Source: Acidobacteriota bacterium (lineage in GTDB: Bacteria; Acidobacteriota; Thermoanaerobaculia; Multivoradales; UBA5704). From it: 64,000 nt of DNA. The stretch's first letter is position 1, and every line of letters starts with the position of its first letter. Of this stretch, positions 22,385-62,958 are shown one piece after another. The notes under the pieces were generated by a model. That model made no database searches. It saw nothing but the letters and a program-made list of their open reading frames with translations, and was not told the origin of the DNA. The DNA is taken from contig JBDTZG010000028.1 of the NCBI GenBank assembly GCA_040005235.1, forward strand, positions 6,940-70,939. The letters are read 5' to 3'. The translations under genes were made by a program, and so were the position numbers.

Positions 22385-23209
22385 CTACTCATTCGGGTGA
22401 ATGACAGGGAAGGTGATGCCGAACACGCTGTAAGCAACCTCCTGTTCGGTAGTCCATAGGCGATGGTCGATGCCTCGGTATTCGATAACGAACGGAATTC
22501 GTAGAGACCTCGGGCCCTGCGACGGCATGGGTACCTCTAATAGCGCGCGCTGGAGCGATGCGTTAAAGTTGCTGACGTTTTCATGAATGAACTCGCCAGG
22601 CTGGAGGCTTTGGAAAGGTCCTCTCACCAATGAGCTGCGGTCGCCGATACTGATCTTGGGTATATTGATGTTAACTGCTGACGCGAGACCAAGATTCACA
22701 ATGCGGACTCTCTCCACGGTGTACTCTTGGCCGGTCTCTTCGTGCTCGACTGCTTCGCGAAAATATTCGTCTATAACTACCCAGGGCCTCTGAGGCATCG
22801 TGACTATCGTTCCAGGAGCTCGGCTATCCAGTTCGCTGAGTGCAGTTTCCTCAGCTAATTGTTTCCAGGAGCGTAGGATAGTTTCGGGAAACCGATTTAC
22901 ATCAGAATCGATGAGTTTTGCGCAGGTTTGGCAAAGCCAAATCGCATTTTCTGCAGACTTTCTCTGTGACGCTGTAATTTCTGGATGGTAGCGAGGTCCG
23001 CCTGGAGAAGCGGAAGTGATATGAGCTGCCACGCCAACATTGATCACACCGTTCCCAAGGAGAGCTGGGCCGCAGGTTTGTTTTCGGCACTTTTCATTCG
23101 AACAGTGGTTGGCAACGCGGTGAGCCAGTTCTGCTTTGATTTTTGCGCTGAAGTCGTCTCTCATCCGTAGAGCCTCTAGTTCTTTTGTTGATCGAGAGAT
23201 CAGATACAT
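22385..23209 (-). CDS. HNH-motif (Zn-finger nuclease-like) protein, N-terminal HNH domain + ~170-aa unknown C-terminal domain
   Basis: It has paired CxxC plus His/Asn: HCSNEKCRKQ...VAAHITSASPGG...NAIWLCQTCAKLID. It lies in a lower-GC island (~52-58%) immediately downstream of and convergent with acs, and directly downstream of the RAYT gene. Confidence 0.55.
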   Translation of the reverse strand: MYLISRSTKELEALRMRDDFSAKIKAELAHRVANHCSNEKCRKQTCGPALLGNGVINVGVAAHITSASPGGPRYHPEITASQRKSAENAIWLCQTCAKLIDSDVNRFPETILRSWKQLAEETALSELDSRAPGTIVTMPQRPWVVIDEYFREAVEHEETGQEYTVERVRIVNLGLASAVNINIPKISIGDRSSLVRGPFQSLQPGEFIHENVSNFNASLQRALLEVPMPSQGPRSLRIPFVIEYRGIDHRLWTTEQEVAYSVFGITFPVIHPNE

Positions 23210-48114: not shown

Positions 48115-48427
48115 GACCCCCGCCTTTGGGTCCAGCTATTTGGAGGGTGATTCTAGTCTGGTTGCTCCACTTCTGTCCAATTTTATCCACTAGGGGCCAC
48201 CAGGACCCCGCGGTGGGCTCTGAAACCTCTTTCCGCAGGGTCGGCGCGGGCGGCAGAGTCGGCACGGGTGTTGAGTACCCGGTCCGGGCACGAGGCGTAC
48301 CTCAGGGGCTGTCGGCGCAAAAATTTGCGAAATTTGCCGCCCAGGGGTCCCGCTGTCTCGCATTGACGCGCCGAAGCACCGTAACATTGCAGAGACCACA
48401 CAATTGATTCGACCGAGGAGACCCCCC

Positions 48428-49888
48428 GTGTCGCAAAATCCTGTGCCGCTGCTTGCCGTGGTGTTGCGGAATCTCCGCGAGCGAGCCGGCTGGACCCAAG
48501 TCCGGCTCGAACGCGAGGCTCGCCTCAGCAAGGGATCGCTCTGCCGGCTGGAGAAGGGCAGCCAGACGGTCGATCGTTTCCTGCTCAATCGGCTGGCGAA
48601 GGTGATGAGAATCGCCGAGGGTGACGTGGAACAGGCGCTCGCAGTGCTGGAGCAGCTCCCGGCGGAGACCGGCGCCGGTTCGTCCGCGGACCTGCCGGTT
48701 CGCGACCGGCAGACGATCGAAACCGTCAGCGCGCGCTTTTCCCGCATGGTTCGCGAGAAGGCCCAGAACCGAATCGGGGGGAAGGTCCGCGCCCGGCGCT
48801 GGCGTCTCGACCGCGCGGCGGCCGCCGTGGCGTGGCAGCGGCTGCGCAAAATGCCCTCCGAGGATCGCCGGCTGATCGTTAAAGCGGTTGAGGCCTTTCA
48901 CACCTGGGCGGTGGTGGAACGGCTTTGCGAGGAGAGCGTAAGGGCGGCGGCCAGCGATATGGAGGAGGCCCGTAGGCTGGCGCAGCTTGCCCGGCAGGCC
49001 TCGACGGCCGCGAGCGGTGCCGAGCGAAGATATAAGTCGCTCGAAAATTACGCGGCGGCCTTCGAAGCGAACGCCTGGTGCGCTGCCGGCGAATTTCGGA
49101 AAGCCGAGCAGATTTTTGCCGAGGTCGATGCGCTCCATGGAGAAGGGCTGGACATCGCGGCAGTACCGGTCGATTGGGCCAGGCCACTGATCTTTCGAGC
49201 GGTGCTTATGATTTATCGGGCGAACCTCGATCCGGCATTGGAATGGCTGAACGAGGCGCTTTCGCTCACTCGCTCGCCGACCGTCAAGACTTGGGCGTTA
49301 ATCTGGCGAGCCGCTGTGCTCAAGCGGAAGCTCCAATTTCCCGCGGCGCTTGAGGAGCTGGAAAAGGCTCGGCCGTACGCCGAGCTTGCAGGCGATGCCC
49401 GGCTTCGATGGGCCATCGCCTTCAATGAAGCGGGTTATTTATGCGAAGCCGGCCATTTGGCGGAGGCTGCCGCCCGCCTTCCAGCCCTGAAGCTGGCAGC
49501 GTTGGAGCTCGGAGGAGCTCTGGATCGCCTGCGGCTCCGCTGGTTGACCGCGAGAGTGGCTGCTGCTTCAGGCCTGTTCCAGGAAGCCGCGACGAACCTC
49601 TCCGAGGTTTGGAATGCCTTTGCCGACCGGAACCTCTGGCTCGACGCGGCGATCGCGGTTCTCGAGCTGGCCAGCATCAACCTGGAGATGGGTCTGTCTG
49701 CCCAGGTCAAGAAGCTCGCCACGGCATCTGCTCACGTCTTCGCGGCGCAGACCCTGCCCGACCACCTTCTCGCGGCGGTTCGACTATTCTGGCAGGCCGC
49801 CCTTCAGGAAGCGGCCACTTCACAAATGGCGCGACAGCTGGTTGGGGACCTTCGCCGCGCCATGGTGGCAAACGCCGAAGCCTCCTGA
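48428..49888 (+). CDS. XRE-type HTH + conserved 'TWAVVERLC' middle domain + C-terminal TPR-like regulator (long paralog 1)
   Basis: GTG start after a gaggaga RBS. The HTH is LLAVVLRNLRERAGWTQVRLEREARLSKGSLCRLEKG. The conserved block FHTWAVVERLCEES is shared with three paralogs. The C-terminal ~250 aa is alpha-helical repeats (AAFEANAWCAAGEFRKAEQIF..., LRWAIAFNEAGYLCEAGHLAEAA). Confidence 0.75.
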   Translation: MSQNPVPLLAVVLRNLRERAGWTQVRLEREARLSKGSLCRLEKGSQTVDRFLLNRLAKVMRIAEGDVEQALAVLEQLPAETGAGSSADLPVRDRQTIETVSARFSRMVREKAQNRIGGKVRARRWRLDRAAAAVAWQRLRKMPSEDRRLIVKAVEAFHTWAVVERLCEESVRAAASDMEEARRLAQLARQASTAASGAERRYKSLENYAAAFEANAWCAAGEFRKAEQIFAEVDALHGEGLDIAAVPVDWARPLIFRAVLMIYRANLDPALEWLNEALSLTRSPTVKTWALIWRAAVLKRKLQFPAALEELEKARPYAELAGDARLRWAIAFNEAGYLCEAGHLAEAAARLPALKLAALELGGALDRLRLRWLTARVAAASGLFQEAATNLSEVWNAFADRNLWLDAAIAVLELASINLEMGLSAQVKKLATASAHVFAAQTLPDHLLAAVRLFWQAALQEAATSQMARQLVGDLRRAMVANAEAS

Positions 49889-49907: not shown

Positions 49908-50195
49908 CTAGGTCCCACACAGACCGTTCGGGTTGATCTCGCAGCCGACTTCGCCGAGAGGAGGCTTACTTCTCGGGCGACCGGAGTCGGAAGCACTGCG
50001 TCCGTCTGGGCTTGCGCCGCGGCGCCCGCTGGGCTCGATCTCGCAACCGCTCGGCGCCCACAGCGCGGAAAAGAATCTCCCGGCTTTGGCGAGCAGGTTC
50101 CCGAGATCCCACGGTGCGGCGGAGGCCTGGGTCGGGAAGGCGAGGACCACGACGAGAAGCAAGAGCGGCAGACGGCGGGGCGACGAAGCGGACAT
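49908..50195 (-). CDS. Small secreted Cys-repeat peptide (precursor), paralog 1
   Basis: 95 aa. The signal peptide is MSASSPRRLPLLLLVVVLAFPTQASA. The mature part begins APWDLGNLLAKAGRFFSALW and contains GCEIEPSGRRG ... GCEINPNGLCG repeats. It is homologous to 58620..58952 and convergent with the long regulator, whose stop is 20 bp away. Confidence 0.6.
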   Translation of the reverse strand: MSASSPRRLPLLLLVVVLAFPTQASAAPWDLGNLLAKAGRFFSALWAPSGCEIEPSGRRGASPDGRSASDSGRPRSKPPLGEVGCEINPNGLCGT

Positions 50196-50395
50196 GACCG
50201 ACTCCTATTCCGAGGGGACCGGCGCCGCGGCCTCCATGGCCGAACGGGCACCCTGCGAGTTCTTCCAGGCGCGCCTGGGCGAAGCTTGGACGCAAAATTT
50301 TGTGCTGCCAGGCGTACGGTGGGGTCTATCTTAGGAGCAAGCCCCGCCCTGCACGCTCTTTCGATACGATTCCCTCCAGAAACTCGGGAGGTGAC

Positions 50396-51220
50396 ATGAA
50401 CGACGCCTTGGATCGCCGCGCGGCAGGCTTGGTGATGCAGTTGTTTCGCTTCATGGCCGGCCGCCACCAGCACGACCTGAGCGAACGGACCGGGATCGAC
50501 ATAAAGCGGATTTCGCGTTACGAGCAGGGAAAAGTTCTGCCTCTTCGGCCGACGCTCGAACGACTCGCTGCGGGCGTCGGCGTCTCCGCGACCCGGCTCG
50601 ATCAGCTTCTCGCGTTGATTCGCACCGTGTGCGCCGAGGGCGAGGCGGCGACCGCCCAAAAGGAGCACGCCACAGCAGACCCCGACGAGTCCGATTGGCC
50701 GGACGATCTCGCCGAGCTGGCGGCGGAGATCGCCGAAGACCTACAGCCCGAGATTTACCAAGCCCTGAAGGAATTGAACGCCGAGCTGAACGCGCCGCCT
50801 CCGCCACTCGCCCCGGAAGCGGCGCGCGCCCAGGCTCGGGAGCTATGGGGAAGGTTCGAACCCTTGCCGGATCGCGTTCGCCGCCTGGTGATCGAACATG
50901 GCAAGGAGTACCAAACCTGGGCCTTTTGCGAACGGCTCTGCGAAGCAAGCCTCGACGCCGGATCGCGCGCGCCGGAGGACGGTCAGGCCTTGGCCGACCT
51001 GGCGCTCTCGGTCGCCGAGGCCGCCCAAGGGTCCGACGTGCTGCGCCAGCGCCTGACCGCCTTCGCCCTCGCCTGCGCCGCCCACGCGGATGTCCTCGCC
51101 GGGGACTCGGAAGAGGCCGCCGAGAAGCTGGGCCGGGCCAAGGCGCTCTGGACGGCCGGGGACGGCACCGACGATCTCGACCTCGGCCAGATCGCCGATC
51201 TGGTGCCCGCCGACTCGTAA
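50396..51220 (+). CDS. XRE-type HTH + 'TWAxxERLC' domain protein without TPR (short paralog 1)
   Basis: gggagg RBS. The HTH is LVMQLFRFMAGRHQHDLSERTGIDIKRISRYEQG. It has a poly-Pro linker (PPPPLAP) and then ELWGRFEPLPDRVRRLVIEHGKEYQTWAFCERLCEAS. It is divergent from the peptide gene across a ~200-bp intergenic region. Confidence 0.7.
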   Translation: MNDALDRRAAGLVMQLFRFMAGRHQHDLSERTGIDIKRISRYEQGKVLPLRPTLERLAAGVGVSATRLDQLLALIRTVCAEGEAATAQKEHATADPDESDWPDDLAELAAEIAEDLQPEIYQALKELNAELNAPPPPLAPEAARAQARELWGRFEPLPDRVRRLVIEHGKEYQTWAFCERLCEASLDAGSRAPEDGQALADLALSVAEAAQGSDVLRQRLTAFALACAAHADVLAGDSEEAAEKLGRAKALWTAGDGTDDLDLGQIADLVPADS

Positions 51221-51229
51221 GGAGTCCCC

Positions 51230-51631
51230 TCAGTTCGGCGCCCGCCGACTTGCGTCCGGCGGAAGCTCCGGCGGCGGCGGGCCGAGACGGCGCTCCAGGT
51301 CGGCGATCTTCTGTTCGAGATCTTCCGCCAGGATTTCGAGAGCCTGACAGAGCCGGTCCTCTTCCTCGGTCACCGTCGAGAGCCGCCGGGTCGCGGCGAG
51401 CCCGGCGAACGCCTGCTTTGTATGCCAGAGGTCGTCGATGCCGGCGCGCGTTCCCGCCTTGAGCCACGGTTCTCCGAACCCCGAGCCGTCTTCCAGCTCC
51501 AGCGCTTCCTCGGCGATCTTTTCGCAGGCATCCTGGACGCGTTGGCGCAAACCCGGCCGGGTGAAATGGACCAGGACCGACTCGCGGAACGGCGCCATCT
51601 CTCTCCAGCGGCGCTTGATCGGGTTGGTCAT
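51230..51631 (-). CDS. Hypothetical protein (coiled-coil C-terminus)
   Basis: 133 aa with plausible composition (…LEILAEDLEQKIADLERRL…). It is the last of three co-oriented ORFs with 4-nt and 13-nt overlaps. Confidence 0.35.
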   Translation of the reverse strand: MTNPIKRRWREMAPFRESVLVHFTRPGLRQRVQDACEKIAEEALELEDGSGFGEPWLKAGTRAGIDDLWHTKQAFAGLAATRRLSTVTEEEDRLCQALEILAEDLEQKIADLERRLGPPPPELPPDASRRAPN

Positions 51632-52062
51632 CCTGGGGATGCCCGTCGCTCAGTCCGCACGGCGGCCCGGTGCCGGCCCAGGCGTCTCTCCTGCACCAGA
51701 CCCAGGAATGCGTCCCGATTCGCGGCCCCATGGGTCATCAGCGCCGCGAAGACCCGAAGGTTCAGACGGGCACCTTCCGGGGGCGGTGTACCTTCCAAGA
51801 GGGCGAGCAGTCGGGCGGCCAGCTCCGGCAAGATGCCCCCTCGCCCCTGGCGCAACAATACGGTTCCCAGCTCGATGTAGGCGTCCGCCGCTGCCATCAC
51901 CTCGCCCGATGCGCGCCAGGTTCCCGCGGCGCGGCCGAACAGTCGCGCCGCCTCTTCGAGGTTCCCATCGTCCCGCTCGCGCTCGGCCCGGTCGAAGATC
52001 TCTCCGGCGGCCCGCCGCAACTCGCCGGGTGCGAGGGGAGAGGCCGGACTTACAGAGGCCAT
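51628..52062 (-). CDS. Hypothetical TPR-like helical protein
   Basis: 144 aa with helical-repeat-like composition (EEAARLFGRAAGTWRASGEVMAAADAYIELGTVLL). It overlaps its neighbours. Confidence 0.35.
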   Translation of the reverse strand: MASVSPASPLAPGELRRAAGEIFDRAERERDDGNLEEAARLFGRAAGTWRASGEVMAAADAYIELGTVLLRQGRGGILPELAARLLALLEGTPPPEGARLNLRVFAALMTHGAANRDAFLGLVQERRLGRHRAAVRTERRASPG

Positions 52063-52499
52063 TCCATTCCTTTTCTGTGCTTCCGGACGTCCGCGAGCAA
52101 CTCGCCTAGTAACGGCGAGCTCGGCGGGGTGATCTCGAGCAAGAGCAAAAGGTTGGAAAAAAGCTCGATTTCCGGCGGCGCCACGGCGAGCGTCGCCGGC
52201 TTGGCGGCGAGCCAGTCCGGCAGGTCGACACGTTCAAGGCGATAGACCGCGGCCAGCGAGAGCGCCGCTAGCCCTTCGAGCCAGGGTTGCTCCGCTTTGC
52301 CGAAGGCATGGACGGCGAGAATAAAACTCTCTTCTGCCTGGGACAGGTTGCCCGCCGCCGCGGCGCGCTCGGCAAAATCCATCGAGCGCCAAGCCAACCG
52401 GAAAAAAGCCGGATGCGCCGGTTCCTTAGCCGGCGCATCCGCGGGCCCTGCGAGCGCGAGAGGGGGTGCGGGTCGCCCGCAGGGGAAAAAGGAGTCCAT
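52050..52499 (-). CDS. Hypothetical protein
   Basis: 149 aa. It is the first of the three co-oriented overlapping ORFs. No recognisable motif. Confidence 0.3.
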   Translation of the reverse strand: MDSFFPCGRPAPPLALAGPADAPAKEPAHPAFFRLAWRSMDFAERAAAAGNLSQAEESFILAVHAFGKAEQPWLEGLAALSLAAVYRLERVDLPDWLAAKPATLAVAPPEIELFSNLLLLLEITPPSSPLLGELLADVRKHRKGMEWPL

Positions 52500-52694: not shown

Positions 52695-53810
52695 CTAGGG
52701 CTGCAGGCCGCCGTTCCACGAAGTGTCCTTGAGCAGATCGGCCCAATTCACGTCGGCGCTCAGCACATTGAATTCGTCGCTGCCGTCCGAGAAGACGTTG
52801 AGGTGTGCCGCCCGCCGAAAGACCTCCTCGCCTTGAATTTCGAAGCCGGGCCGTAGCGGCGGCAAGATGTAGAGGCCCATCCACGGACTACCGGTTGGGT
52901 TACAGCCCGTCTGGCCGGAAGCGGTGCAGAAGGGGAGCGCCGTGATTTCGCCCGTCGTCAAGCGTCCCTGGGTATCGGTGTGCAGGCGCAGCAGGAAGGG
53001 GATTTCCAGGTCACTGTAGACACACACTCCGTCGTCATCGCAGGAAAGGGCAGAGTCATAGGCGTCAATCCGGTAAGTCAGCGGCTCCTCCGCCCGGTAG
53101 AGAGCGGTCTTGTAGGAAATAAAGGCGCAGAACGGATTGGGAATGGGTTCCGCCAGGCAGCCTGTCGGCCGAACCGTCCGCGCGAGGATCGAGTAGACCT
53201 TGAGGTCAAAGTCGGTCACTTCGGTATGGCAGGGAGAGAGTAGGTCGTCGACGGTCAAACCGCGTCCCGCGGTGTCCGCGTGGTCCGCCTGCGCGTCCTG
53301 GAGAGTGGTGATCCGAATCGAATTCTTCGGCTGAAAAGGGTCTGGCGGCTCCCGGGACAGGATGAGATCCACGAGCATCGAGAACCGGGTCGTCCCCTCG
53401 AGATTCGAAGACGCATCCCGCCGAACCAAGGTGGCCTGGGGCCGGCGATCCCTTCGGGGGTTCAAGAAGTCCTCGTCCTCGCGAAGGATCAGGTCGAACG
53501 CCAGCTGTTTCTCCTGTCGCTCGCGGTCGCCTTGAACCGTGGTGTGTCGCAACTGGCTGGTGCTGGCCAATCCTCTGTAGGTGCCGCCATTGGCGCTCGA
53601 CCGCCAGAGGAGGAGGCTCGACTCCCCGTAGGAAACCCCCATGCGGTGCAGCAACCTCCCCATTTGCCGCTCTTCGCAGGCGACCTGCTCGGACGTGAGG
53701 GGGCGGCCGAAGGGCTGGGCCACAGCATTGCGTACCGCACATGCGCCGAAGACCAGGGCCACGGCCCAAGCCGGCACCCGCCACCCTACGGCTGCAGGCC
53801 GCCGTTCCAC
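52695..53810 (-). CDS. Secreted protein of unknown function, 'WNGGLQP' family paralog A
   Basis: 371 aa with an N-terminal signal-like segment (AVALVFGACAVRNAVAQ). It is ~80-85% identical to the adjacent paralog B along its whole length (QPFG-PLTSEQVACEERQMGRLLHRMGVSYGE ... ADVNWADLLKDTSWNGGLQP). It contains several Cys. Confidence 0.7.
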   Translation of the reverse strand: MERRPAAVGWRVPAWAVALVFGACAVRNAVAQPFGRPLTSEQVACEERQMGRLLHRMGVSYGESSLLLWRSSANGGTYRGLASTSQLRHTTVQGDRERQEKQLAFDLILREDEDFLNPRRDRRPQATLVRRDASSNLEGTTRFSMLVDLILSREPPDPFQPKNSIRITTLQDAQADHADTAGRGLTVDDLLSPCHTEVTDFDLKVYSILARTVRPTGCLAEPIPNPFCAFISYKTALYRAEEPLTYRIDAYDSALSCDDDGVCVYSDLEIPFLLRLHTDTQGRLTTGEITALPFCTASGQTGCNPTGSPWMGLYILPPLRPGFEIQGEEVFRRAAHLNVFSDGSDEFNVLSADVNWADLLKDTSWNGGLQP

Positions 53811-54889
53811 GAGGTGTCCTTGAGCAGGTCCGCCCAGTTGACGTCGGCACGTAGAATGTTCAAGTCAGGAAAGGCAACCGAGAAAAGGTTCAGGTGGGCC
53901 GCACGCCGAAAGACTTCCTCTCCCTGAACCTCGATGCCGGGTCTCAGGGGAGGTAAGACGTAAAGGCCCATCCAAGGACTGTCCTCCGGGCTGCATCCGG
54001 TTTGGCCCGACGCTGTGCAAAACGGCAGCAGCGAGACCTCCCCGGATGCCAACCGGCCTTGGGCGTCGGCTTGGATGCGAAACAGCAGTGAATTCTGCTC
54101 GTCGCTGTAAACGCACACGCCGTCTTCGTCGCAGGACAACGAGGAGAGATATACGTCGGCCCGATAGGTCAGCGGCTCCTCCGCGCGGTAGAACGCGGTT
54201 TTAAAGGAAATGAATCCGCAGACCGGGTTGGGAATGGGTTCCGCCAGGCAGCCCGTCGGCCGCACCGTCCGGGCGAGGATCGAGTAGACCTTTAGGTCGA
54301 AATCGGTCACCTCAGTATGGCAGGTATTCAAAAGGTCGTCGACGGTCAGACCGCGTCCGGCGGTGTCCGCGTGGTCCTCCGGCGCTTCCTGGAGGGTGGT
54401 GATCCGGATCGAATTCTTTGGGTGGAAAGGGTCGGGCGGCTCCGGGGACAGGATGAGATCTACGAGCATCGAGAACCGGGTCGTTCCCATCGGGTCGAGG
54501 TTCGACGCCGCGTCCCGCCGGACCAGCGTCGCCTGCGGGCGGCGTTCCCGCCGGGGGTTCAAGAAGTCTTCATCGGCGCGGAGAATCAGGTCAAACGCCA
54601 GCTGTTTCTCATCGCGCATCCGGATGTCTACGGTCGTCGTAGGATCGAAATAAAGGTGGTCCGTACTGGCCAAGCCTCTGTAGCTGCCGCCGTTGGCCGC
54701 CGATCGCCAAAGGTAGAGGCCAGCCTCGCCATATGAGACCCCCATACGATGAAGCAATCGCCCCATCTGGCGCTCCTCGCAGGCGACCTGCTCGGACGTG
54801 AGGGGGCTGCCGAAGGGCTGGGCCGCCATAATTCCCGGGGCGATGATTACCAGGAAGAGAATCGCGAACAACGCGCTTTTGGGTTTCAT
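53786..54889 (-). CDS. Secreted protein of unknown function, 'WNGGLQP' family paralog B
   Basis: The start is the internal Met MKPKSALFAILFLVIIAPGIMAAQPFG, a clear signal peptide. 367 aa. It is tandem with paralog A. The upstream 103 aa of the track ORF is read-through. Confidence 0.75.
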   Translation of the reverse strand: MKPKSALFAILFLVIIAPGIMAAQPFGSPLTSEQVACEERQMGRLLHRMGVSYGEAGLYLWRSAANGGSYRGLASTDHLYFDPTTTVDIRMRDEKQLAFDLILRADEDFLNPRRERRPQATLVRRDAASNLDPMGTTRFSMLVDLILSPEPPDPFHPKNSIRITTLQEAPEDHADTAGRGLTVDDLLNTCHTEVTDFDLKVYSILARTVRPTGCLAEPIPNPVCGFISFKTAFYRAEEPLTYRADVYLSSLSCDEDGVCVYSDEQNSLLFRIQADAQGRLASGEVSLLPFCTASGQTGCSPEDSPWMGLYVLPPLRPGIEVQGEEVFRRAAHLNLFSVAFPDLNILRADVNWADLLKDTSWNGGLQP

Positions 54890-55321
54890 AGCTTCCCCGC
54901 TGAACCTGTCTTCTGTTGGACCTGGAGAACGATGTCGAAGGAATAGAACGGCGAAACGATCTCGCAACTTCCCCCGTTGCAGGTTTTGTGGATGGGATCC
55001 CAATTGATGGTCTGGACTGCCGTCATGGTTCCCGTTGCCGGCGTGACCCACTGGACCTCGAACCGATCGGCCGTCGGTCCGAGGTTCAAGAGCGTCAAGC
55101 GGTCTTGGTATTTCTGCGCCAGCCAGATCCGCGCGTCGAAAGCGTTGCGCGGGAGAAATATCGGTTTGGCGCTCGGAGACGTGGACTCTTTGGGGCATCC
55201 GTTCGCAGTGAACTCCGCCTCGGGCGCGTTCGATGCCGTGCTGGCCGCGCAGCGGATCGTGCTGTGGTGTAGATAGAGCAGGAAAAGCCGGTTCGGCTCC
55301 GGTCTCCGACCTGGATCGGCA

Positions 55322-56821
55322 TCAATCGGTATCCGTCGGAGATTGAGGGCCTTGATGTAGGTCGGGTCTCGCAGCGCTATTGGGCAGCCCTCCAGACCAA
55401 GCTGACCGGGACGAGGTGAGGCGCCCGAGCGGCAGCGCGTTGACGAATTTCTTGAGTACGCCGAGTTGGCGCCGAATGGTCGCGGGGGTGTTCGGGTCGC
55501 CTCCGGAGAGATATCCGAAATGGTCGTAGGTGGCGCCCTGGTCGAACAGAAACTCCCAGGCTTCGGCGCGCGCCGGTTCGGCGAGCTTTTCTGTCAGGGC
55601 GCCGTTGGTATGGGCGCGGGTGCCGCTCTTGCCTCCGACATCTGGGTTGCCGATGAACTGACCGGCGCCTTTGGTCGTAAACGGCTGTACCGCCACCAAA
55701 TGCCCGCCGGCGGCCAAGCGCGGGTATTTCGCTTCCTGAAAGGTGACCTGGGCAATCATGTCGCGCTGCCACTTGGCGACCTCGAGGGGATCGACGGTCT
55801 GGGCCTCCGGCTCGTTGGCGATCTCCCAATAGACGGTGTCGAAGCACCAGAGTTCTTGGACCGTCCACTCGATCACTTTGGCCTGGGCCACGCGCATGCG
55901 CTCGTTCGTCAGGGCCTCCTGGGTGCCTCGCGTGTCGTGGGTCACGAAGTACTCGGGCTTTGAGAACTTCACCGTCTCGAACGTCCCGTCCGACTTCGGC
56001 ATCATCCCCTTGCCGCCCCAGGGACCCTGGGAGAAGAAATCTCCCTCGAACGGCGCGAAGATGGTCACTTCGACGATCATCTTCCTCGGGTCCTGGGCGT
56101 AGGCCACGACATCGCGCAAGCGTTGGAAATACCGCGTGTTCGGCTTGTCCAGGCGCCAGAACGGGTAGGCGTTGGCCGGGAAGTTGGCGCAGTCGGGGCT
56201 CGCCACGGCGCTCGGGCAATAGAGGAACGGGACGTTGTTCGGGTTTTTCTCTCCGGCCAGGGCGATCCAGAGGCGGAGCTTGTTCAGGCCCGCTTCGAAG
56301 GCGGCTTGGATCGTCGTGGGGTAGTTGGTCCAGTTGCATTTGTCGGAGGAGAGTTCGAGGTGGCAGCCGTTGTCAGCCGAGACGCCGACGAGGGTCTGGA
56401 TCGTGTTGCGGTACGAAAAGTAGCGCGAGGCGAAAGGCAGGGCGGCGGTCGTTTTGCCGATCTTGATCGGGGTGATCGTCTGCGTGATGTTGCCGCAACC
56501 GGTGGCGGAAATCGTGGGATCGGCCGGAACGTCGGGGTCGGTGCCCAGCAGCTCGGGCGGATAGAGATCCTCCGAGTCGAGCGAATTCGGGTCGCCGTCG
56601 TAGGGGAGCAAGTCGTCGCCGAGGGTCCACAGCTCGGCGGGCAAGCTGGGGTCGGTGGTCGAGCCACCGTCGCCGAAGACGGAAGAGAGGGGTGGCTCTT
56701 CTTCGGGTCCGGGTGGGGGTTGGGCGGGAAGGGGGGCACCGACCGAGAGGAACGAAAGAAAGATGAAGGCGAGGGTCGCACGGTGGCAGAGGGATAAGAG
56801 TAGCGAGCGAGTTCGGTCCAC
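55322..56821 (-). CDS. Secreted glycoside hydrolase family 5-like protein
   Basis: The signal peptide is MDRTRSLLLSLCHRATLAFIFLSFLSVGAPLPAQ, followed by an acidic/Pro linker. The GH5 acid/base signature context is VYWEIANEPE. 499 aa. Confidence 0.55.
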   Translation of the reverse strand: MDRTRSLLLSLCHRATLAFIFLSFLSVGAPLPAQPPPGPEEEPPLSSVFGDGGSTTDPSLPAELWTLGDDLLPYDGDPNSLDSEDLYPPELLGTDPDVPADPTISATGCGNITQTITPIKIGKTTAALPFASRYFSYRNTIQTLVGVSADNGCHLELSSDKCNWTNYPTTIQAAFEAGLNKLRLWIALAGEKNPNNVPFLYCPSAVASPDCANFPANAYPFWRLDKPNTRYFQRLRDVVAYAQDPRKMIVEVTIFAPFEGDFFSQGPWGGKGMMPKSDGTFETVKFSKPEYFVTHDTRGTQEALTNERMRVAQAKVIEWTVQELWCFDTVYWEIANEPEAQTVDPLEVAKWQRDMIAQVTFQEAKYPRLAAGGHLVAVQPFTTKGAGQFIGNPDVGGKSGTRAHTNGALTEKLAEPARAEAWEFLFDQGATYDHFGYLSGGDPNTPATIRRQLGVLKKFVNALPLGRLTSSRSAWSGGLPNSAARPDLHQGPQSPTDTD

Positions 56822-57158: not shown

Positions 57159-58613
57159 ATGCCCAAGGTGGACCTGCCGCCGACGAATGCGGCGCTATTG
57201 ATTTTGCGCATCCTGTGTCGCCTGACACAGGATGAGTTCGGCGAGCTGACCGGCATGAAGAGCCGGATCGTCGAGATCGAGAATGGCCGGTATGTCCTTA
57301 AGCGCGCCGAGCTCGAAGATCTGGTGGAGGAGCTCAAGGTGTCGGCCTACGCGGTGCCGGTCGCCCTCGGCCTATCGGAGCTGGTGTTGCCGTCGACCGA
57401 CAAGACCCCCCACCCCTGGGAGGCGACGCCCGACGCGCGGTTTCAGGCCGAGCGCGCGACCCTCGAATCGTCCGCCATCGTGCGCCGTCTGTTCCTCGCC
57501 GAAGCGCGCGCGGAGCGCTACGCGGCGGACCGCGAGGAGGCCGAGCGCCTCTGGAAGCTGCTTGCGCCGCTCAATCGCGACCGGCGGCGGGTGATGGCCC
57601 GGATCGTCGATTTCTCGACCTGGGCGGTGGTCGAGCGCCTCTGCATCGAGAGCCTCAGGGGAGCGCCTCGGGATCCCGGGGCCGCCCGCTCGCTCGCCGA
57701 GCTGGCCGTTGAGGTGGCCCAGAGGATTCCGCCGCTGCCCAGGTTCAGCGATCGGGTGGAAGGGTACGCCCAGGCCCACTTGGGCAACGCCTTTCGAGTC
57801 GGGAACGACTTTGACGAGGCGGTTCGCGCTTTCGCGCTCGTCGCGAAACTTTGGATCGAGTTCCTGCCGGGCGAGGCCTGCCCGTTTGACGTGACGCTGA
57901 TCCCCGACCTAGAAGCTTCTCTGCGCCGCGATCAGCGTCAATTCTCCTTAGCGTTCGCTGGGCACGACCGGGCTCTTTCCTTCGCTGTCGAGGATGCGAT
58001 CCGCGGGCGCATCCTCCTCAATAAGGCAGTGACATTCGAGCATTCCGGCGATCCAGTTGGTGCGGTTGCAACTCTCAGCGCTGCTCAGCCTCTTATCGAC
58101 ACGAGCAACGAAACCCGGCTGGGTTGTGTCGCGCGTTTCAACTTGGCGGTCAACCTCCTCCATCTTGGAAACGCCTTAGATGCCGAGCCGCTGATCGCCG
58201 AGGTGCGGGCGCTTGCGATCGAACAGCGAAACGAGCTTGACCTGATCCGGGTCCTTTGGCTCTCCGGCCGCCTTGCCGCCGCGCAAGGAGATCGGGCGAA
58301 GGCGATGGTCTCGATCGATGACGCGGCCTGTCGCTTCGCCGAACAGGGCCTCGGATATGACGCCGCACTGGCGGTGCTCGACCTCGCGGGGCTGCTCTTG
58401 GAAGAAGGCAACCCGAGAGAGGCAGCCCGGAGGGTGGCCGAGGTGCAACCCACTTTCCACGTGCGAAACATTCACCGGGAGGAACTGGCGAGCCTGGTTC
58501 TGTTCCTCCAAGCCGTCGAAACCGAAGCGGCGACCGCCGCGCTGGCGCGCGCGGCGGCCGAGGCCTGGAGGTTGTTCGGCACGCCCGTTCCTTTCGGAAG
58601 TCTGGCCGACTGA
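57159..58613 (+). CDS. XRE-type HTH + 'TWAVVERLC' domain + TPR-like regulator (long paralog 2)
   Basis: The HTH is LLILRILCRLTQDEFGELTGMKSRIVEIENG. The conserved block is RIVDFSTWAVVERLCIESLRG. The C-terminal helical repeats are YAQAHLGNAFRVGNDFDEAVRAF ... LAVLDLAGLLLEEGNPREAARR. 484 aa. It has the same architecture as 48428..49888. Confidence 0.75.
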   Translation: MPKVDLPPTNAALLILRILCRLTQDEFGELTGMKSRIVEIENGRYVLKRAELEDLVEELKVSAYAVPVALGLSELVLPSTDKTPHPWEATPDARFQAERATLESSAIVRRLFLAEARAERYAADREEAERLWKLLAPLNRDRRRVMARIVDFSTWAVVERLCIESLRGAPRDPGAARSLAELAVEVAQRIPPLPRFSDRVEGYAQAHLGNAFRVGNDFDEAVRAFALVAKLWIEFLPGEACPFDVTLIPDLEASLRRDQRQFSLAFAGHDRALSFAVEDAIRGRILLNKAVTFEHSGDPVGAVATLSAAQPLIDTSNETRLGCVARFNLAVNLLHLGNALDAEPLIAEVRALAIEQRNELDLIRVLWLSGRLAAAQGDRAKAMVSIDDAACRFAEQGLGYDAALAVLDLAGLLLEEGNPREAARRVAEVQPTFHVRNIHREELASLVLFLQAVETEAATAALARAAAEAWRLFGTPVPFGSLAD

Positions 58614-58619: not shown

Positions 58620-58952
58620 CTACTGGCCGCAGCGACCCTCTGGGTCGACGACGCAACCCGCGTCGCGAAGGATCGGCGCCGGGGCACTCGACGAACCGCA
58701 GCGGCCGTAGGGATCGAGGCTGCAGCCCACGTCGCTGAGGATCGGCACCGGGGCGCTCGACGGGCCGCGGCCGCCGTGGGGGTCGAGGCTGCAGCCCTCC
58801 TCCTCCCAGAGGGCCGAAAGAAACGACCAGCCGCGGGCGAACAGGTCGGGGAGGGTGCGATCGAGCGGCAAGGCGCCGGCCGGGAAGGCACTGAGGAGGA
58901 AGAGGGCTAGCAGAGCGACGGCGAGGGCGAGGTGACGCTTCGGTTGGGGCAT
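58620..58952 (-). CDS. Small secreted Cys-repeat peptide (precursor), paralog 2
   Basis: 110 aa. The signal peptide is MPQPKRHLALAVALLALFLLSAFPAGA. The mature part is LPLDRTLPDLFARGWSFLSALWEEEGCSLDPHGGRG...VGCSLDPYGRCG...AGCVVDPEGRCGQ, i.e. three ~20-aa repeats. It is convergent with the long regulator, whose stop is 7 bp away. Confidence 0.6.
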   Translation of the reverse strand: MPQPKRHLALAVALLALFLLSAFPAGALPLDRTLPDLFARGWSFLSALWEEEGCSLDPHGGRGPSSAPVPILSDVGCSLDPYGRCGSSSAPAPILRDAGCVVDPEGRCGQ

Positions 58953-59028
58953 GGCGGTGGGCTCCTGGTCAGCCCGGGAACCTCCGGCCGGGATGGCCGG
59001 CGGCCCGGTACGAAGGGGTTCAGAGGGT

Positions 59029-59046
59029 AACCCAAGTTTTTGGGTT
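59029..59046. promoter_or_regulatory. Perfect 18-bp palindrome AACCCAAgtttTTGGGTT ~20 bp upstream of short HTH paralog 2; candidate operator in the peptide/HTH divergent promoter
   Basis: Read directly from the sequence: 7-bp arms with a 4-nt spacer. It is AT-rich against ~68% GC. Confidence 0.4.
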
Positions 59047-59067: not shown

Positions 59068-59955
59068 ATGGAACGGAAATCCGGCAGAACGCGAGACGTT
59101 CGCTCAGGACTCAGTGCGGCACCCACCCCTGGCGCCGCCGCGAAGGGGGGAAGGGCCGCGGCCAAAGCGCGGGACGCCGAGTACTCGGCTCTGTTGGTCC
59201 GGTATATGGATGCGACGGTCGGCCCGCGGCACGACCAGTTCGCGGAGTTGGTCGAGATCAGCGCGGCGCGGGCGAGCCTCTACCGCTACGGCTACAAGGT
59301 GCCCCGGCCCGAGACGAAGGCCCGTTTCTCCGGCCGGGTCGGGCTGCCGATCGAATGGTTCGAGGCGATGACCGCCGACTCGTTGTTTCTCCGCGGCAAA
59401 AGCTCAAAGCCGGCGGGAAGTACTCCCGCAGCCCTGGCGGAAGACCTCTCCCGCCGGCTCGCGGGCCAGCTCGCCCCGCGGTTCGCGGCGTTGCGCAGCG
59501 TAGCCCCCGCCGCCCCTCCTCCTCCTCCTCCTTCGCTCGAACGGGCGGCGGCCGATCGAGCCGAGGCGGACCGGCATTGGACCGAAATCGAGCCGCTCAC
59601 CGCCGCCGAGCGCGCCCTCGCGGTGCCGGAGATCCCGAGGTTCCACTCCTGGGCGCTGGTCGAGCTGCTCTGCGGAAAAAGTGTAGAGGCCGCGCCCGTG
59701 TCGCCGGCCGAAGCGCTCGCCCTCGCCAAGCTGGCCATACGACTGGCCCGCCGGGTCCAAGCAAGCCAAGGATTTCGCGACCGCCTGATGGGCTACGCCC
59801 TCCTCCACTCGGCCGCCGCACTCAAGAGCCTGAACGACCTGCCGCGAGCCCGGGAAGCCCGCGCGCGCGGGCTACGGCTTTTCGCGGCGGGGCGGAAGGA
59901 GGATCCGGGGTTGCTGGATGAAGCGATCGCCGAGGGACTCGCGTCGTCGTCGTAG
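59068..59955 (+). CDS. XRE-type HTH + 'SWALVELLC' domain protein without TPR (short paralog 2)
   Basis: ttggaggg RBS. The HTH is YSALLVRYMDATVGPRHDQFAELVEISAARASLYRYGY. It has a poly-Pro linker (PPPPPPS) and then HWTEIEPLTAAERALAVPEIPRFHSWALVELLCGKS. 295 aa. It is divergent from the peptide gene across a ~115-bp intergenic region. Confidence 0.7.
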   Translation: MERKSGRTRDVRSGLSAAPTPGAAAKGGRAAAKARDAEYSALLVRYMDATVGPRHDQFAELVEISAARASLYRYGYKVPRPETKARFSGRVGLPIEWFEAMTADSLFLRGKSSKPAGSTPAALAEDLSRRLAGQLAPRFAALRSVAPAAPPPPPPSLERAAADRAEADRHWTEIEPLTAAERALAVPEIPRFHSWALVELLCGKSVEAAPVSPAEALALAKLAIRLARRVQASQGFRDRLMGYALLHSAAALKSLNDLPRAREARARGLRLFAAGRKEDPGLLDEAIAEGLASSS

Positions 59956-60023
59956 GGCCGGCGGCATTCTGGGAAAGGGGAGCGCGGGCGCCGTCGAGGA
60001 GCGGGCGGCGCCCGGGAATGCAT

Positions 60024-60584
60024 TCAGGGTGTGGATGCCTGAGCGAGGAAGGCACCAAAGACATCAGTAGGCACGTGGTCGATCTGGGCGCCGGGGCTGT
60101 TTGCGGCTTCAGAGAAGAAGTCCTCTATCGCTTGGACCGACCGAGCGAACGCATCGCTGCAAATTGTTGGAAATGCAGCGCCGAAGCCGAAGGTTTTTGT
60201 CACTTTGCTCGTGCCTTTCCTACCGAACCAAGTGACCGCGGAGACGAAGACTTCGCCTTGTCCTGGAACGTCCCGATAAGCGCAGTGGCCACGCTCGGAA
60301 CCGAATCGGTTCTCGGACAGGGCCTGCTGTAGCCGGCGGACGGCATCCGAAGTACCCCGGGCTCGAATCAGGGTCGTTTGGCCGGGCGACCGCTGGGTGC
60401 TGATCAACAGGCCATCGCGAAAGATGACGTAGTCGATATTTGTCTTGAAGCCGGTCACCTCGTCGTCGACGTGGGCCGTGCGACGAACGAGGTAGCTTTC
60501 GGGTGCCGGCGTCTGAGCCAGCGCCAGCGTGGGCAGGATCAGTGCCAGGGCATAGAGCCAGAAAACGGGTCTAGTTGCTCTCAT
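60024..60584 (-). CDS. Secreted protein of unknown function (tandem duplicate 1)
   Basis: The probable start is the Met of MRATRPVFWLYALALILPTLALAQTP (signal peptide). ~186 aa. It is ~85% identical to 60746..61324. Confidence 0.6.
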   Translation of the reverse strand: MRATRPVFWLYALALILPTLALAQTPAPESYLVRRTAHVDDEVTGFKTNIDYVIFRDGLLISTQRSPGQTTLIRARGTSDAVRRLQQALSENRFGSERGHCAYRDVPGQGEVFVSAVTWFGRKGTSKVTKTFGFGAAFPTICSDAFARSVQAIEDFFSEAANSPGAQIDHVPTDVFGAFLAQASTP

Positions 60585-60745
60585 ACGACACCTCCGGGGC
60601 GAGTATTCCACGGAACTACACGAACAATACCGGTTTGCCGGTTACAGCTTGTCAGTGGAGCGAGACATCCGGTTGTCGCCCAGGATTCTTACGGCGAAGG
60701 GACAAGCGGGCGCCGTCGAGGAGCGGGCGGCGCCCGGGCATGCAT

Positions 60746-61324
60746 TCAGGGTATGGATGCCTGAGCGAGGAAGGCACCAAAGACATCTGTAGGCACGTGG
60801 TCGATCTGGGCGCCGGGACTGTTCGCGGCCTCAAAGAAGAAATCCGCGATCGCTCGGACCGAGCGAGCAAATGACTCGCTGCATTGGGACGGGAATGCGG
60901 CGCCAACGCCGAAAGTTTTCGTCACCTGGCTGGTTCCCGTTCTTCCGAACCAAGTTACCGCTGAGACAAAGACTTCGCCTTGCCCCGGGAAGTCGCGATA
61001 CGAGCAGCGATTACCCGCGGTGCCGAACCGGTTCTGGGAAAGCACCTGCTGCAGCCTTCGGACGGCATCTGCCGTGCCCCGGGCTCGAATCAGGGTCGTT
61101 TGGCCCGGCGACCGTTGGGTGCTGATCAATAGGCCGTCTCGAAAGATGACGTAGTCGATATTTGTCTTGAAGCCGGTCACCTCGTCATCGACGTGGGCCG
61201 TCCTCCGGACGAGGTAGCTCTCGGCTGCCGGTGTTTGTGCCAGGGCCAACGTTGGCGGGTTCAGCCCCAGGGTACAGATCCAGAAAAGGTAACTTCTCGC
61301 TCTCATTCGCCACCTCCAAGCCAC
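60746..61324 (-). CDS. Secreted protein of unknown function (tandem duplicate 2)
   Basis: The signal peptide is (MAWRWR)MRARSYLFWICTLGLNPPTLALAQTP. The body is near-identical to duplicate 1 (YLVRRTAHVDDEVTGFKTNIDYVIFRDGLLISTQRSPGQTTLIRARG...). Confidence 0.6.
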   Translation of the reverse strand: MAWRWRMRARSYLFWICTLGLNPPTLALAQTPAAESYLVRRTAHVDDEVTGFKTNIDYVIFRDGLLISTQRSPGQTTLIRARGTADAVRRLQQVLSQNRFGTAGNRCSYRDFPGQGEVFVSAVTWFGRTGTSQVTKTFGVGAAFPSQCSESFARSVRAIADFFFEAANSPGAQIDHVPTDVFGAFLAQASIP

Positions 61325-61332
61325 AAAGTGCT

Positions 61333-62958
61333 CTAAGGTACTACCTGAACGATACCAGTTTGCCAGTTACAGCTCGCACCCGCAGGGCCAAAGTTCTCAC
61401 CGGCAAGCCACAGGCTCCCGCCAGATGGATCAGCCTGCGCACCTGAGTAGTCGCCCGTTTTGCCTGAGCTTCCCCCTCTTGAGCAGGTTCCCGGCCGCAG
61501 GACGTTCAGGGGTGAGAAAGCCGCAGAGCCCGAGACCCTCGTGAGCCAGCCCGAACCGTGATGCAAGCTAGCCGACCCCATGTGCAGCGCCAGCCCTATT
61601 CGGCCGCTGTTCGTCACAGCGATCGAGGGCATCCAGAGGAAGTTATTAGCCGACAAGCCAACGGTGGTTTGCTCGGCGAGGGGCGCCAGAAATCCGCTGG
61701 TCGTAGGTGCAAGGTTGAAGCGGAGGACCCGGAAGCAAGCTTCATTGTTTCCAGCGGCGATCTGGCATCCGGTAGTCTGAACAGCCCAGATGGAATCACC
61801 GATTCCCGCGACTTGGAGGATTCGGGAATCCCCCGTCTCCAGAGAGATTCCGGCCGGTTGGGGGGCGTCGGGAGGCGTCGTATACATCCGCAGGCCCAGA
61901 ACTTCGGTCATCTCTAGGCGCGGAGCCGTCGTTGCGCCATCGCGAATCCTCCAGACCCGATAACCCTTCGCGGGCGATCCCTTCGCGCTGATCAGATATC
62001 CGGAGGTGCCGCCGGTGGCGCTGGGGAGCGTGTAGTGCTGCACGGGCTGGAGAGTTTGGGCGTTCGCGGCTTCAAACGCGGCAAGCGGGAGAGGGCGGAA
62101 GGTCACAGCGGCAGGAAGTGCCGGGCAAGTTGCGACGTTATTGACCAAAGCTGCCTTGGCTAGTATCCGGAGAAGTGGATATCCACGCGATACATTGGCG
62201 TTATCCACCACGAACTGATTCGTCGTCACCATCACCACGTCTCGCCCCACGCCCAGGCTCGGGTAGTCGGCAATCGCCTTGTCGGCCGTGGTGATGTCCG
62301 TTCGGGCCTCCGTGGAATACCGGCACCACTGTGCGGCATCCAGGCCTGTCGGGTTGGCGCTCCGCGACACGGCGAGAAACAGCTTTTGCGGGTCGCCGTT
62401 GACCACCTTCTCCAGGACGACGACAAAGAAACGCTGGGAGTTGCGATCGTAGAAGACCTTGGGGTCGAAGACCCCCGGCGACTCGGGGATTCCGAAGAAT
62501 GCCGCGGTGGTCCGTGTCACACGGATCGTTCCGTCCGTATTGAACAGCCGCAGGGCGGCGTTGACCGCTTCGAGGACTCGATCGGTGCTGCGGGCGATGC
62601 CGACGTCTGGAGGCGTCTTCTGGCCGCCGGCCAGGTAGTCGAGCCCCGGAAAGCTCGCCGCGAGTGTCGCCGTGCCGGAGCGCGACGCAAGAGCCAGCAC
62701 CACATCGGGCGGCTCGGCGTTGGGATCTATGAGCGCCGCTTCCTGCGCCTTCGTTAGTTCCTCAGGCGTCAAGCCGAAGGGTTCCGGCATCTCTTCGGCC
62801 ACCGAATCGCCGGGGGCCGGGTCGGGGTAGTCCACCTCGGGCAGCGGCTCGACCGGCGCTTCCATCTCCGGTTCGAAGATTTCAACGTCCTGGCTGCGCC
62901 CGGGCCAGGCGGCGAGGACGATTGCGACGCAGAAAATACCGAGCACTCTCGAATACAT
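61333..62958 (-). CDS. Secreted protein of unknown function (541 aa)
   Basis: The signal peptide is MYSRVLGIFCVAIVLAAWPGRSQ. An acidic Pro-rich linker (EIFEPEMEAPVEPLPEVDYPDPAPGD) is followed by a large beta-rich domain. No recognisable family. Confidence 0.55.
   Translation of the reverse strand: MYSRVLGIFCVAIVLAAWPGRSQDVEIFEPEMEAPVEPLPEVDYPDPAPGDSVAEEMPEPFGLTPEELTKAQEAALIDPNAEPPDVVLALASRSGTATLAASFPGLDYLAGGQKTPPDVGIARSTDRVLEAVNAALRLFNTDGTIRVTRTTAAFFGIPESPGVFDPKVFYDRNSQRFFVVVLEKVVNGDPQKLFLAVSRSANPTGLDAAQWCRYSTEARTDITTADKAIADYPSLGVGRDVVMVTTNQFVVDNANVSRGYPLLRILAKAALVNNVATCPALPAAVTFRPLPLAAFEAANAQTLQPVQHYTLPSATGGTSGYLISAKGSPAKGYRVWRIRDGATTAPRLEMTEVLGLRMYTTPPDAPQPAGISLETGDSRILQVAGIGDSIWAVQTTGCQIAAGNNEACFRVLRFNLAPTTSGFLAPLAEQTTVGLSANNFLWMPSIAVTNSGRIGLALHMGSASLHHGSGWLTRVSGSAAFSPLNVLRPGTCSRGGSSGKTGDYSGAQADPSGGSLWLAGENFGPAGASCNWQTGIVQVVP

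Follow-up and report, generated by a model that had tools for sequence, protein, structure and literature searches.

We examined a 64,000-nt stretch of an Acidobacteriota genome (contig JBDTZG010000028.1; hereafter the window) that carries two small minus-strand genes, here called pepA and pepB, for predicted exported precursor peptides built around cysteine-containing repeat units (Table 1). Two regulator genes on the other strand flank each peptide gene, one convergent with it (R1) and one divergent from it (R2). The R1 proteins combine an XRE-type helix-turn-helix (HTH) with tetratricopeptide repeats (TPRs), and the R2 proteins are short members of the same family. We refer to the two gene sets as modules A and B, and consider below whether they could encode a peptide signal and its receptor.

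Table 1. Features of modules A and B, in order of position in the window
Feature	Coordinates	Strand	Description
R1A	48404..49888	plus	494-aa XRE-HTH and TPR regulator, convergent with pepA; start codon approximate
pepA	49908..50195	minus	95-aa predicted exported precursor: signal peptide, GRFFSALW helix, one open and one closed ring
Palindrome GCACAAAATTTTGCGT	50290..50305		In the pepA/R2A divergent promoter region; related to the palindrome at 59029..59046
R2A	50396..51220	plus	274-aa short HTH protein of the R1 family, divergent from pepA
Two small cytoplasmic genes	51230..52062	minus	133 aa and 144 aa; accompany modules in close relatives
R1B	57159..58613	plus	484-aa XRE-HTH and TPR regulator, convergent with pepB; presumed peptide-sensing receptor
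pepB	58620..58952	minus	110-aa predicted exported precursor: signal peptide, GWSFLSALW helix, three rings
GC-rich inverted repeat CCGGGCCGCCGGCCATCCCGGCCGG	58981-59003		In the pepB 5' leader, directly upstream of the ribosome-binding site; near-invariant in 7 loci
AT-rich operator-like palindrome AACCCAAAAACTTGGGTT	59029..59046		In the pepB/R2B region; CCCAAATATTTGGG in orthologues
R2B	59068..59955	plus	295-aa short paralogue, divergent from pepB; start MERKSG

Coding status and sequence of pepA and pepB

The two open reading frames (ORFs) had been singled out in a first-pass annotation as one family of secreted, repeat-bearing peptides, and both are present as it described. The motif GCxx[DEN]PxG occurs five times in a six-frame scan of the 64 kb, in each case inside pepA or pepB, and the two proteins align to each other with E=1e-11. 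An AGGAG ribosome-binding site (RBS) lies 7-10 nt 5' of the ATG in both genes, and in the proposed frames the GC content of the three codon positions follows the order GC3 > GC1 > GC2, as expected of a coding frame. Comparison with orthologues yielded dN/dS values of 0.28-0.40 for the window peptide genes (0.28-0.40 for pepB; 0.37 with the pepA orthologue at 11988-12254 of the related locus L001). Several longer ORFs in other frames overlap both peptide ORFs, which would suit spurious ORFs in a GC-rich genome with the true feature in another frame or on the other strand. Given the GC3 pattern, dN/dS, RBS and alignment, however, it is the overlapping ORFs that are spurious. Protein-level conservation takes in over 1000 clusters, in which the Cys/Asp/Pro/Gly pattern is invariant, and the RBS and start codon are conserved as well, so that the spurious-ORF explanation is refuted for practical purposes. 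pepA and pepB are genuine coding genes in the frames first proposed.

Read in protein order, pepA comprises MSASSPRRLPLLLLVVVLAFPTQASA up to the predicted cleavage site and APWDLGNLLAKAGRFFSALWAPS after it, then GCEIEPSGRRG (ring 1, open) and the closed C-terminal ring 2, GCEINPNGLCGT, with the core GCEINPNGLCG. In the same way, pepB comprises MPQPKRHLALAVALLALFLLSAFPAGA and LPLDRTLPDLFARGWSFLSALWEEE, followed by GCSLDPHGGRG (ring 1, open), GCSLDPYGRCG and GCVVDPEGRCGQ (ring 3, core GCVVDPEGRCG); its rings 2 and 3 are closed and it terminates in CGQ. The predicted signal peptides, assigned by sequence features rather than with a dedicated predictor, end at PTQASA/AP in pepA and FPAGA/LP in pepB (the slash marks the cleavage site). 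Some details of the first-pass annotation need correction. Its listing of the repeats ran in reverse order relative to the two ORFs, and the hydrophobic motif that it placed at the mature N-terminus lies 10-13 residues past the predicted cleavage site. The paired cysteines that it assigned to the repeats hold for the later rings and fail for ring 1 of both window precursors, where Arg replaces the closing Cys. This residue was lost independently in the two precursors, leaving each with an odd number of cysteines. In pepA-type orthologues (L001 and L002), the first ring is fully degenerate and the C-terminal ring alone is kept.

Neither pepA nor pepB retrieved a match in Pfam or NCBIfam, even at E<=10, nor in PADLOC or PHROGs, so membership of the window peptides in a known family was rejected; the peptide family is in neither Pfam (2025) nor NCBIfam (June 2026). 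Two existing models align locally, over short stretches, with one ring in a few members of the family. P0145 scored 31 bits against Pfam DUF6799 (PF20606), for which one of 14 tested members, a set that includes both window peptides, passes the gathering threshold. P0143 scored 17.8 bits over one ring against NCBIfam NF047412 (sig_GCG_CRPN_rpt), whose curated cut-off is 24 bits. These matches span 11-37 residues and most members fall under the cut-offs; membership in either family was rejected, and the matches look like motif-level coincidence.

A large family of ring-containing precursors

A search with pepB returned 20 homologues, 44-100% identical and annotated as "hypothetical protein" in Acidobacteriota and Thermoanaerobaculia metagenome-assembled genomes (MAGs); their alignment contains a conserved signal peptide, a LPDLFARGWSFLS[AS]LW segment and 1-3 repeats. 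When a profile of pepB homologues was run against 1.84 billion representative proteins, at least 1146 clusters (50% identity) were retrieved at E<=1e-3 and 383 at E<=1e-10, and the best 150 listed matches are all small proteins of 83-169 aa. Both window peptides score well against the hidden Markov model (HMM) of the family (pepA E=2e-18, pepB E=3.5e-37). The family proposed in the first-pass annotation is thus borne out, in that homologues exist and keep the Cys pattern.

Family members have four parts: a Sec-type signal peptide, an aromatic helix (W..L..LW), the ring units and a short tail. Precursors are 85-170 aa long. Across 170 members, the repeat unit is [DEK]-x-G-C-x-[ILV]-D-P-x-G-x-C, in which G(-1), both Cys, D, P and G are 97-100% conserved, and the ring from Cys to Cys comprises 9 residues in 472 of 515 rings. 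A precursor usually carries three closed rings (one to five closed rings in 7, 19, 105, 35 and 3 precursors, respectively), and the tail past the last Cys is 2 residues long in 107 and 4 residues long in 39 of the precursors. The linkers, 1-59 residues long (median 10), are variable and rich in the residues A, P, T and S. In ~96% of 241 members the N-terminus is basic and is accompanied by an uncharged stretch of at least 12 residues and a small-x-small site, a count made by heuristic and not with SignalP. Members thus differ in repeat number (1 to 5) but share a conserved signal peptide, aromatic helix and C-terminus, a pattern that the first-pass annotation had put forward as a check on the family. 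The first ring, open in both window peptides, is closed in most homologues. Since closure is about equally frequent in first, middle and last rings (79%, 79% and 83%), the idea that the C-terminal ring is special was rejected.

Conservation is unevenly distributed along the precursor. Among 15 pepB orthologues, mean pairwise identity is 0.94 for the ring scaffold, 0.725 for the pro-helix, 0.72 for the signal peptide and 0.57 for the linkers, and falls to ~0.32 at the variable ring positions (+1, +2, +5 and +7). The frame that changes least in the precursor thus carries its most rapidly evolving residues. At these variable positions, rings within one precursor are more alike (identity 0.456) than rings of different precursors (0.244), a value reached in 0 of 1000 permutations.

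Hypervariable ring positions fit the specificity determinants of a ligand, and they fit equally well an arms race with an external target. The latter belongs to a different account of the locus, in which the mature peptide would be the end product, a regulated secreted effector, and the HTH-TPR proteins would control its expression without sensing it. Such an effector might take the form of a string of disulfide hairpins or of freed rings, and act as a bacteriocin-like antagonist, a multi-headed inhibitor, or a binder of an external target, a metal or a surface. The precursor is large for one that yields a pheromone, and its predicted Sec signal and disulfide rings would suit a harsh exterior. 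Nine-residue disulfide loops are also the reactive loops of Bowman-Birk-type inhibitors; the ring size is alike, but the Bowman-Birk pattern CTxSxPPxC differs from the x-[ILV]-D-P-x-G-x conserved here.

AlphaFold modelled pepB with low confidence (predicted local distance difference test, pLDDT, 55; predicted template modelling score, pTM, 0.24) as two helices, that of the signal peptide and W..L..LW, plus isolated hairpins at rings 2 and 3. No tertiary fold is seen in this model, and the compact disulfide-rich domain, offered in the first-pass annotation as the alternative to a signalling precursor, was rejected as unsupported; as the alignment was shallow, this is weak negative evidence.

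Conserved linkage to HTH-TPR regulators

The R1-pep-R2 triad was found again in every related locus examined, including those around paralogous receptors, and a third module is present in the same MAG as the window. Receptor loci were collected with the motif LEASLRRDQ in one genome per species over 185,579 species, which gave 124 confirmed matches in 77 loci. A peptide-family ORF was detected by HMM within 3 kb in 72 of these 77 loci, on the opposite strand in 71 of the 72, mostly 26-170 nt past the point where the receptor alignment ends. From the peptide side, a degenerate DNA pattern for W-x3-G-C-x-[ILV]-D-P-x-G-x-C yielded 120 metagenome loci with 113 strong peptide genes. An adjacent opposite-strand receptor-family ORF accompanies 104 of the 113 (91 convergent, 70 divergent, 57 both), and most peptide genes lacking one are on very short contigs. 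The pairing of peptide and HTH-TPR regulator is near-obligate. It lends strong indirect support to the signalling-precursor idea of the first-pass annotation, of which the proteolytic release of several short units is a putative part.

All 77 genome loci come from MAGs of Thermoanaerobaculia, Holophagales or other Acidobacteriota, and a single MAG has as many as 6 of them. Metagenome loci L120, L156, L131, L109 and L198 contain alternating arrays in which regulator genes on one strand and peptide genes on the other follow each other (R, pep, R, pep, R). A regulator that lies between two peptide genes of such an array is thus at once "divergent" from one and "convergent" with the following one; in the lineage of the window, by contrast, the divergent copy is shortened to ~275-300 aa. 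No relatives were found in viral contigs, and the window is chromosomal, with a dcw/mur cluster abutting module A as it also does in L001. A phage or mobile-element origin was rejected on these grounds.

In the related loci examined, no transporter, protease, immunity gene, modifying enzyme or opp gene is conserved near the peptide genes. For the secreted-effector account this cuts both ways. An uptake system is missing from the neighbourhood and the host is a diderm, as would be expected if the peptide acted outside the cell. On the other hand, no immunity, export or target-related gene is conserved, the conserved set being regulators and peptide; each peptide has one or two TPR regulators of its own, up to at least 6 per genome, which is typical of signal-receptor pairs and would be unusual for a simple effector; and a TPR domain of the ligand-binding type would be left with no ligand. 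We consider a secreted effector unlikely, and nevertheless the chief rival to the signalling interpretation given below.

The same neighbourhoods bear on whether the Cys units could be cores of a multi-core ribosomally synthesised and post-translationally modified peptide (RiPP) precursor, modified through thioether or oxidative Cys chemistry by enzymes encoded elsewhere. The repeated units are core-like and contain Cys, RiPPs with Sec signals exist (bufferins), and L001 has LanC-like, luciferase-like and MacB/FtsX genes within 3 kb. These enzyme genes, however, are missing from the window, from L002, L005 and L007 and from more distant loci, and in L001 they adjoin a 57-aa Cys-rich candidate precursor of their own. 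No conserved modifying enzyme was seen in ~190 loci, which were searched with the two module HMMs only. Moreover, an invariant pair of Cys i and Cys i+8 around a D-P-x-G turn finds a simple explanation in a disulfide hairpin. Because these L001 genes (LanC-like, luciferase-like, MacB) lack conserved counterparts in the other loci, a RiPP cluster was rejected, and we consider RiPP cores very improbable. The L001 genes themselves (L001:5414-6871), a 57-aa peptide (...GVSNCCCEPTSNQGGNGCYPKI) with LanC-like, luciferase-like monooxygenase and MacB/FtsX neighbours, are a candidate cluster of lanthipeptide-like type, unrelated to the ring-peptide module.

The R1 and pep stop codons lie 19 nt apart in module A and 6 nt apart in module B, so that the convergent transcripts must overlap, and a hairpin with a T-run past pepB on the R1 strand could end an R1 transcript antisense to the whole of pepB. 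This arrangement would suit an unprocessed small envelope protein that is coupled to its regulators because these sense the cytoplasmic pre-protein, for instance through its aromatic helix, and so read out export or redox state, or because R1 and pep are transcribed antisense to each other. Such a protein would also account for the lack of an evident protease site and for the good conservation among orthologues of the W..L..LW helix and the linkers, which would be unneeded if the rings alone mattered. Antisense overlap, however, is equally compatible with signalling, and is used by prgQ/prgX, a pair from the RRNPP systems discussed below. Hypervariable positions on an invariant scaffold and a ring number free to range from 1 to 5 would go unexplained in an envelope protein, and AlphaFold gave the mature region no fold; we regard this role as quite improbable.

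Sequence and predicted structure of the regulators

R1A matches Pfam HTH_31 and HTH_3 at residues 17-71 and shares 30% identity with R1B over 329 aa (E=3e-31). R1B has at least 254 homologues and matches Pfam HTH_19, HTH_3, TPR_12 and TPR_MalT below threshold. Most of the TPR domain is absent from R2A, which matches HTH_31, HTH_3 and HTH_19 and is similar to both R1A (E=2e-11) and R2B (E=1e-8); R1A and R2A both pass the Pfam cut-offs for HTH_31. A "TWAxxERLCxxS" region is common to R2A and R2B. The arrangement of R1A and pepA is repeated in L001, L002 and L004, with a 275-aa R2A orthologue at the same position, and R2B orthologues of 295-313 aa are found in L001, L002, L005 and L007. The start of R2B was placed at MERKSG because its RBS and ATG are conserved, being invariant in 7 orthologous loci.

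AlphaFold predicted the structure of R1B with good scores from a 63-sequence alignment (pLDDT 88, pTM 0.80). The model consists of a five-helix N-terminal HTH bundle, a 45-residue helix (residues 91-135) and ~9 helical hairpins; the TPR region spans about residues 140-484 and includes the invariant residues N210, R213, R256 and R260. Foldseek matched it to LGN, a consensus TPR, the RapJ-PhrC complex and phi3T Rap-pheromone complexes, and further fold matches were RapI, NprR and Rap105. What these searches retrieved were TPR superhelices of the peptide-binding kind. According to the model, then, peptide-bound Rap/NprR receptors are the closest solved bacterial structures to R1B. At the sequence level, no RRNPP-specific Pfam or NCBIfam model matched the receptor, and a match to RapH reached E 1e-4 over 88 residues only. 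Sequence homology to solved RRNPP receptors was rejected, the similarity being generic to TPR and XRE proteins. The architecture of R1, as modelled, is of the RRNPP-receptor type; membership by sequence is unsupported.

Palindromes upstream of the peptide genes

Across 7 orthologous loci, the 115-bp divergent region of pepB and R2B shows 86% identity, which makes it more conserved than the peptide. Besides the RBS and start codon of R2B, it contains the AT-rich palindrome and the inverted repeat listed in Table 1, the latter of which may form a leader hairpin. In the pepA-type locus of L002 and L004, a palindrome CGCAAAAATTTGCG is located at -107. Perfect palindromes with arms of at least 7 occur in 22% of 77 distinct upstream regions, as against 7.5% of random windows from the same loci and 3.8% of shuffled sequences. 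They lie at -74 to -123 and form a family in which the outer arms are ACC(C/G)...(C/G)GGT and the centres differ from module to module. The upstream palindromes look like operators of dimeric HTH proteins. Scans for sigma-70 promoters and for terminators gave nothing useful.

A possible peptide signal-receptor module

We favour the interpretation that pepA and pepB are precursors of exported signals and that the flanking XRE-HTH/TPR proteins are their cytoplasmic receptor-regulators, forming an RRNPP-like module in a Gram-negative phylum; we give this a probability of about 0.5. It is the simplest reading because the module consists of TPR-HTH regulators and an exported, fast-diversifying peptide, present in many diverged copies per genome. 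As part of the same interpretation, we propose that the module evolved in, or is at least confined to, Acidobacteriota (Thermoanaerobaculia, Holophagales). It is analogous to RRNPP systems and not a member of them by sequence.

The steps could be as follows. The precursor would be exported by Sec, with cleavage of its signal peptide after ASA or AGA. Each G-C-x-[ILV]-D-P-x-G-x-C would close in the oxidising periplasm as a nine-residue disulfide-stapled beta-hairpin, for which the conservation pattern suggests that the D-P-x-G turn and the Cys pair act as invariant scaffold and the outward positions +1, +5 and +7 carry specificity. Cutting of the Pro/Ala/Thr-rich linkers would then free 1-5 related rings per precursor, which would build up outside the cell before being taken up. 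Judging from the predicted fold, the rings could bind the concave TPR surface of full-length R1. R1 and its short paralogue R2 may in turn act on the palindrome in the pep/R2 promoter, and the module would thereby regulate itself. Since a genome holds many diverged modules, these might serve as private channels, like the multiple Rap-Phr pairs of Bacillus.

Several considerations weigh against a signal-receptor module. Processing, export past the periplasm, uptake and binding are all proposals. No conserved cleavage motif was found C-terminal to the rings of the 170 precursors, and the protease sites that the first-pass annotation had suggested looking for did not materialise, the only conserved sequence flanking the rings being [DEK]-x-G on the N-terminal side. 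Neither a protease nor a transporter for the ring peptides was found in the module neighbourhoods. The host is a diderm, which would require two passages of the signal through the outer membrane and one through the inner membrane, and the cytoplasm that houses the receptor would probably reduce the disulfide ring. At 85-170 aa, the precursors are longer than typical RRNPP propeptides. Identical rings occur within a precursor in only 3 of 155 cases, on account of which an identical multi-copy signal was rejected. The linkers of one precursor are also alike (0.43), and recent internal duplication therefore suffices to explain why its rings resemble each other. The fold match of R1B to Rap/NprR is no better than that to the eukaryotic TPR proteins LGN or APC, and comparison of the receptor with PDB sequences, by single sequence and by profile, retrieved only consensus TPR, IFIT, OGT and XRE repressors. 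Lastly, the element at 59029..59046 appeared in the terminator scan as a weak hairpin with a T-run, and could alternatively be a weak terminator for R1B read-through.

A bolder version of the signalling interpretation is that Acidobacteriota of the Thermoanaerobaculia/Holophagales lineage communicate through the first family of gene-encoded peptide pheromones that are sensed by cytoplasmic receptors in any diderm phylum: disulfide nonapeptides, freed in 1-5 copies from a Sec-exported precursor, that arose independently of RRNPP, with dedicated XRE-TPR receptors and hundreds to thousands of diverged "pherotype" pairs, several per genome. We put this forward tentatively, as a possibility that we rather doubt.

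Comparison with RRNPP and other peptide systems

The RRNPP/RRNPPA systems (Rap-Phr, NprR-NprX, PlcR-PapR, Rgg-SHP, PrgX and AimR-AimP) have the same two-part layout of a TPR receptor and a Sec-exported propeptide. An N-terminal XRE-type HTH is also found in NprR, PlcR, Rgg and AimR, Rap being the exception without one. In RRNPP systems the mature peptide is released from the cell, re-imported through Opp and bound by the receptor, whose activity changes as a result; for the present module, comparable steps are a proposal. The present module shares with them a C-terminal TPR-type domain, an N-terminal HTH and an adjacent gene for a propeptide with predicted export; it does not share receptor sequence homology or occurrence in Bacillota and their mobile elements. 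Further likenesses are the many diverged paralogous pairs per genome, the palindromic boxes in the peptide-gene promoter and, in the model, the fold of R1B, which among bacterial structures best matches RapI, NprR and Rap105.

The differences are also considerable. The host phylum here is the Gram-negative Acidobacteriota, whereas RRNPP systems have been placed in Firmicutes/Bacillota, and the pairing of a peptide pheromone with a TPR receptor in the cytoplasm is regarded as a hallmark of Gram-positive Firmicutes and of the phages and plasmids they carry (PMC10075063, PMC9765709). The receptor is longer (~485 aa, with a 45-residue linker helix in the model), and the peptide gene typically lies between two receptor-family genes on the opposite strand. 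In place of short linear peptides, there is an 85-170-aa precursor with predicted disulfide-closed nonapeptide rings.

RRNPP propeptides with tandemly duplicated pheromones are known from the Rap-Phr systems of phi3T and phi105 (PMC11343458). They resemble the ring precursors in having several related putative units per propeptide, whose copy number and sequence vary between homologues. The phi3T and phi105 units, however, are linear 5-7-mers freed by known extracellular Bacillus proteases, and those described here are 9-residue Cys-Cys rings. Multi-core RiPPs and Sec-dependent Cys RiPPs (cyanobactins, bufferins) likewise have repeated short Cys units in a small precursor, but in the present module the regulators are the only conserved neighbours and no gene for a modifying enzyme is conserved adjacent to the peptide.

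No description of a ring-peptide module was found in the literature on RRNPP in Acidobacteria/Acidobacteriota and on quorum sensing in Thermoanaerobaculia. New here are the RRNPP-like logic in another phylum and the precursor design, with no detectable sequence relationship to RRNPP. Quorum sensing in Gram-negative bacteria is taught as based on small molecules. If the signalling interpretation is true, it raises the question of how a diderm cell exports and re-imports peptide signals, and the modules would make orthogonal peptide/regulator/operator triplets readily available. Synthetic 9-12-mer peptides and recombinant receptors would suffice for a direct test of the hypothesis, and no culture of the organisms is needed.

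Other features of the window

The 144-aa member of the small gene pair next to R2A has a weak TPR_12 match, and pairs of 130-156 aa and 131-133 aa adjoin the R1B orthologues in L001, L002, L005 and L007. These small genes may be accessories of the module or targets of its regulation. The small cytoplasmic-gene region near module A is also listed with 52050-52499. Between modules A and B, positions 52695-56821 hold three minus-strand ORFs of 371, 470 and 499 aa, the first of which has, by eye, a hydrophobic, signal-peptide-like N-terminus. No Pfam model reaches its curated cut-off in any of the three (HTH_33 matches the 371-aa ORF weakly, below threshold), and they appear to be a ~4.6-kb insertion because they are missing at the same position in L001 and L002.

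At 22001-24000, GC content dips to 0.57, compared with 0.61-0.72 in all other 2-kb windows; an ORF within the dip (22385..23209, minus strand) has no Pfam match. Just downstream of module B, at 59975-61374, there is a tandem duplication of ~722 bp with 300-nt copies that are 84% identical. It yields two paralogous secreted proteins of ~192-195 aa, encoded at 60024..60611 and 60746..61324 on the minus strand.

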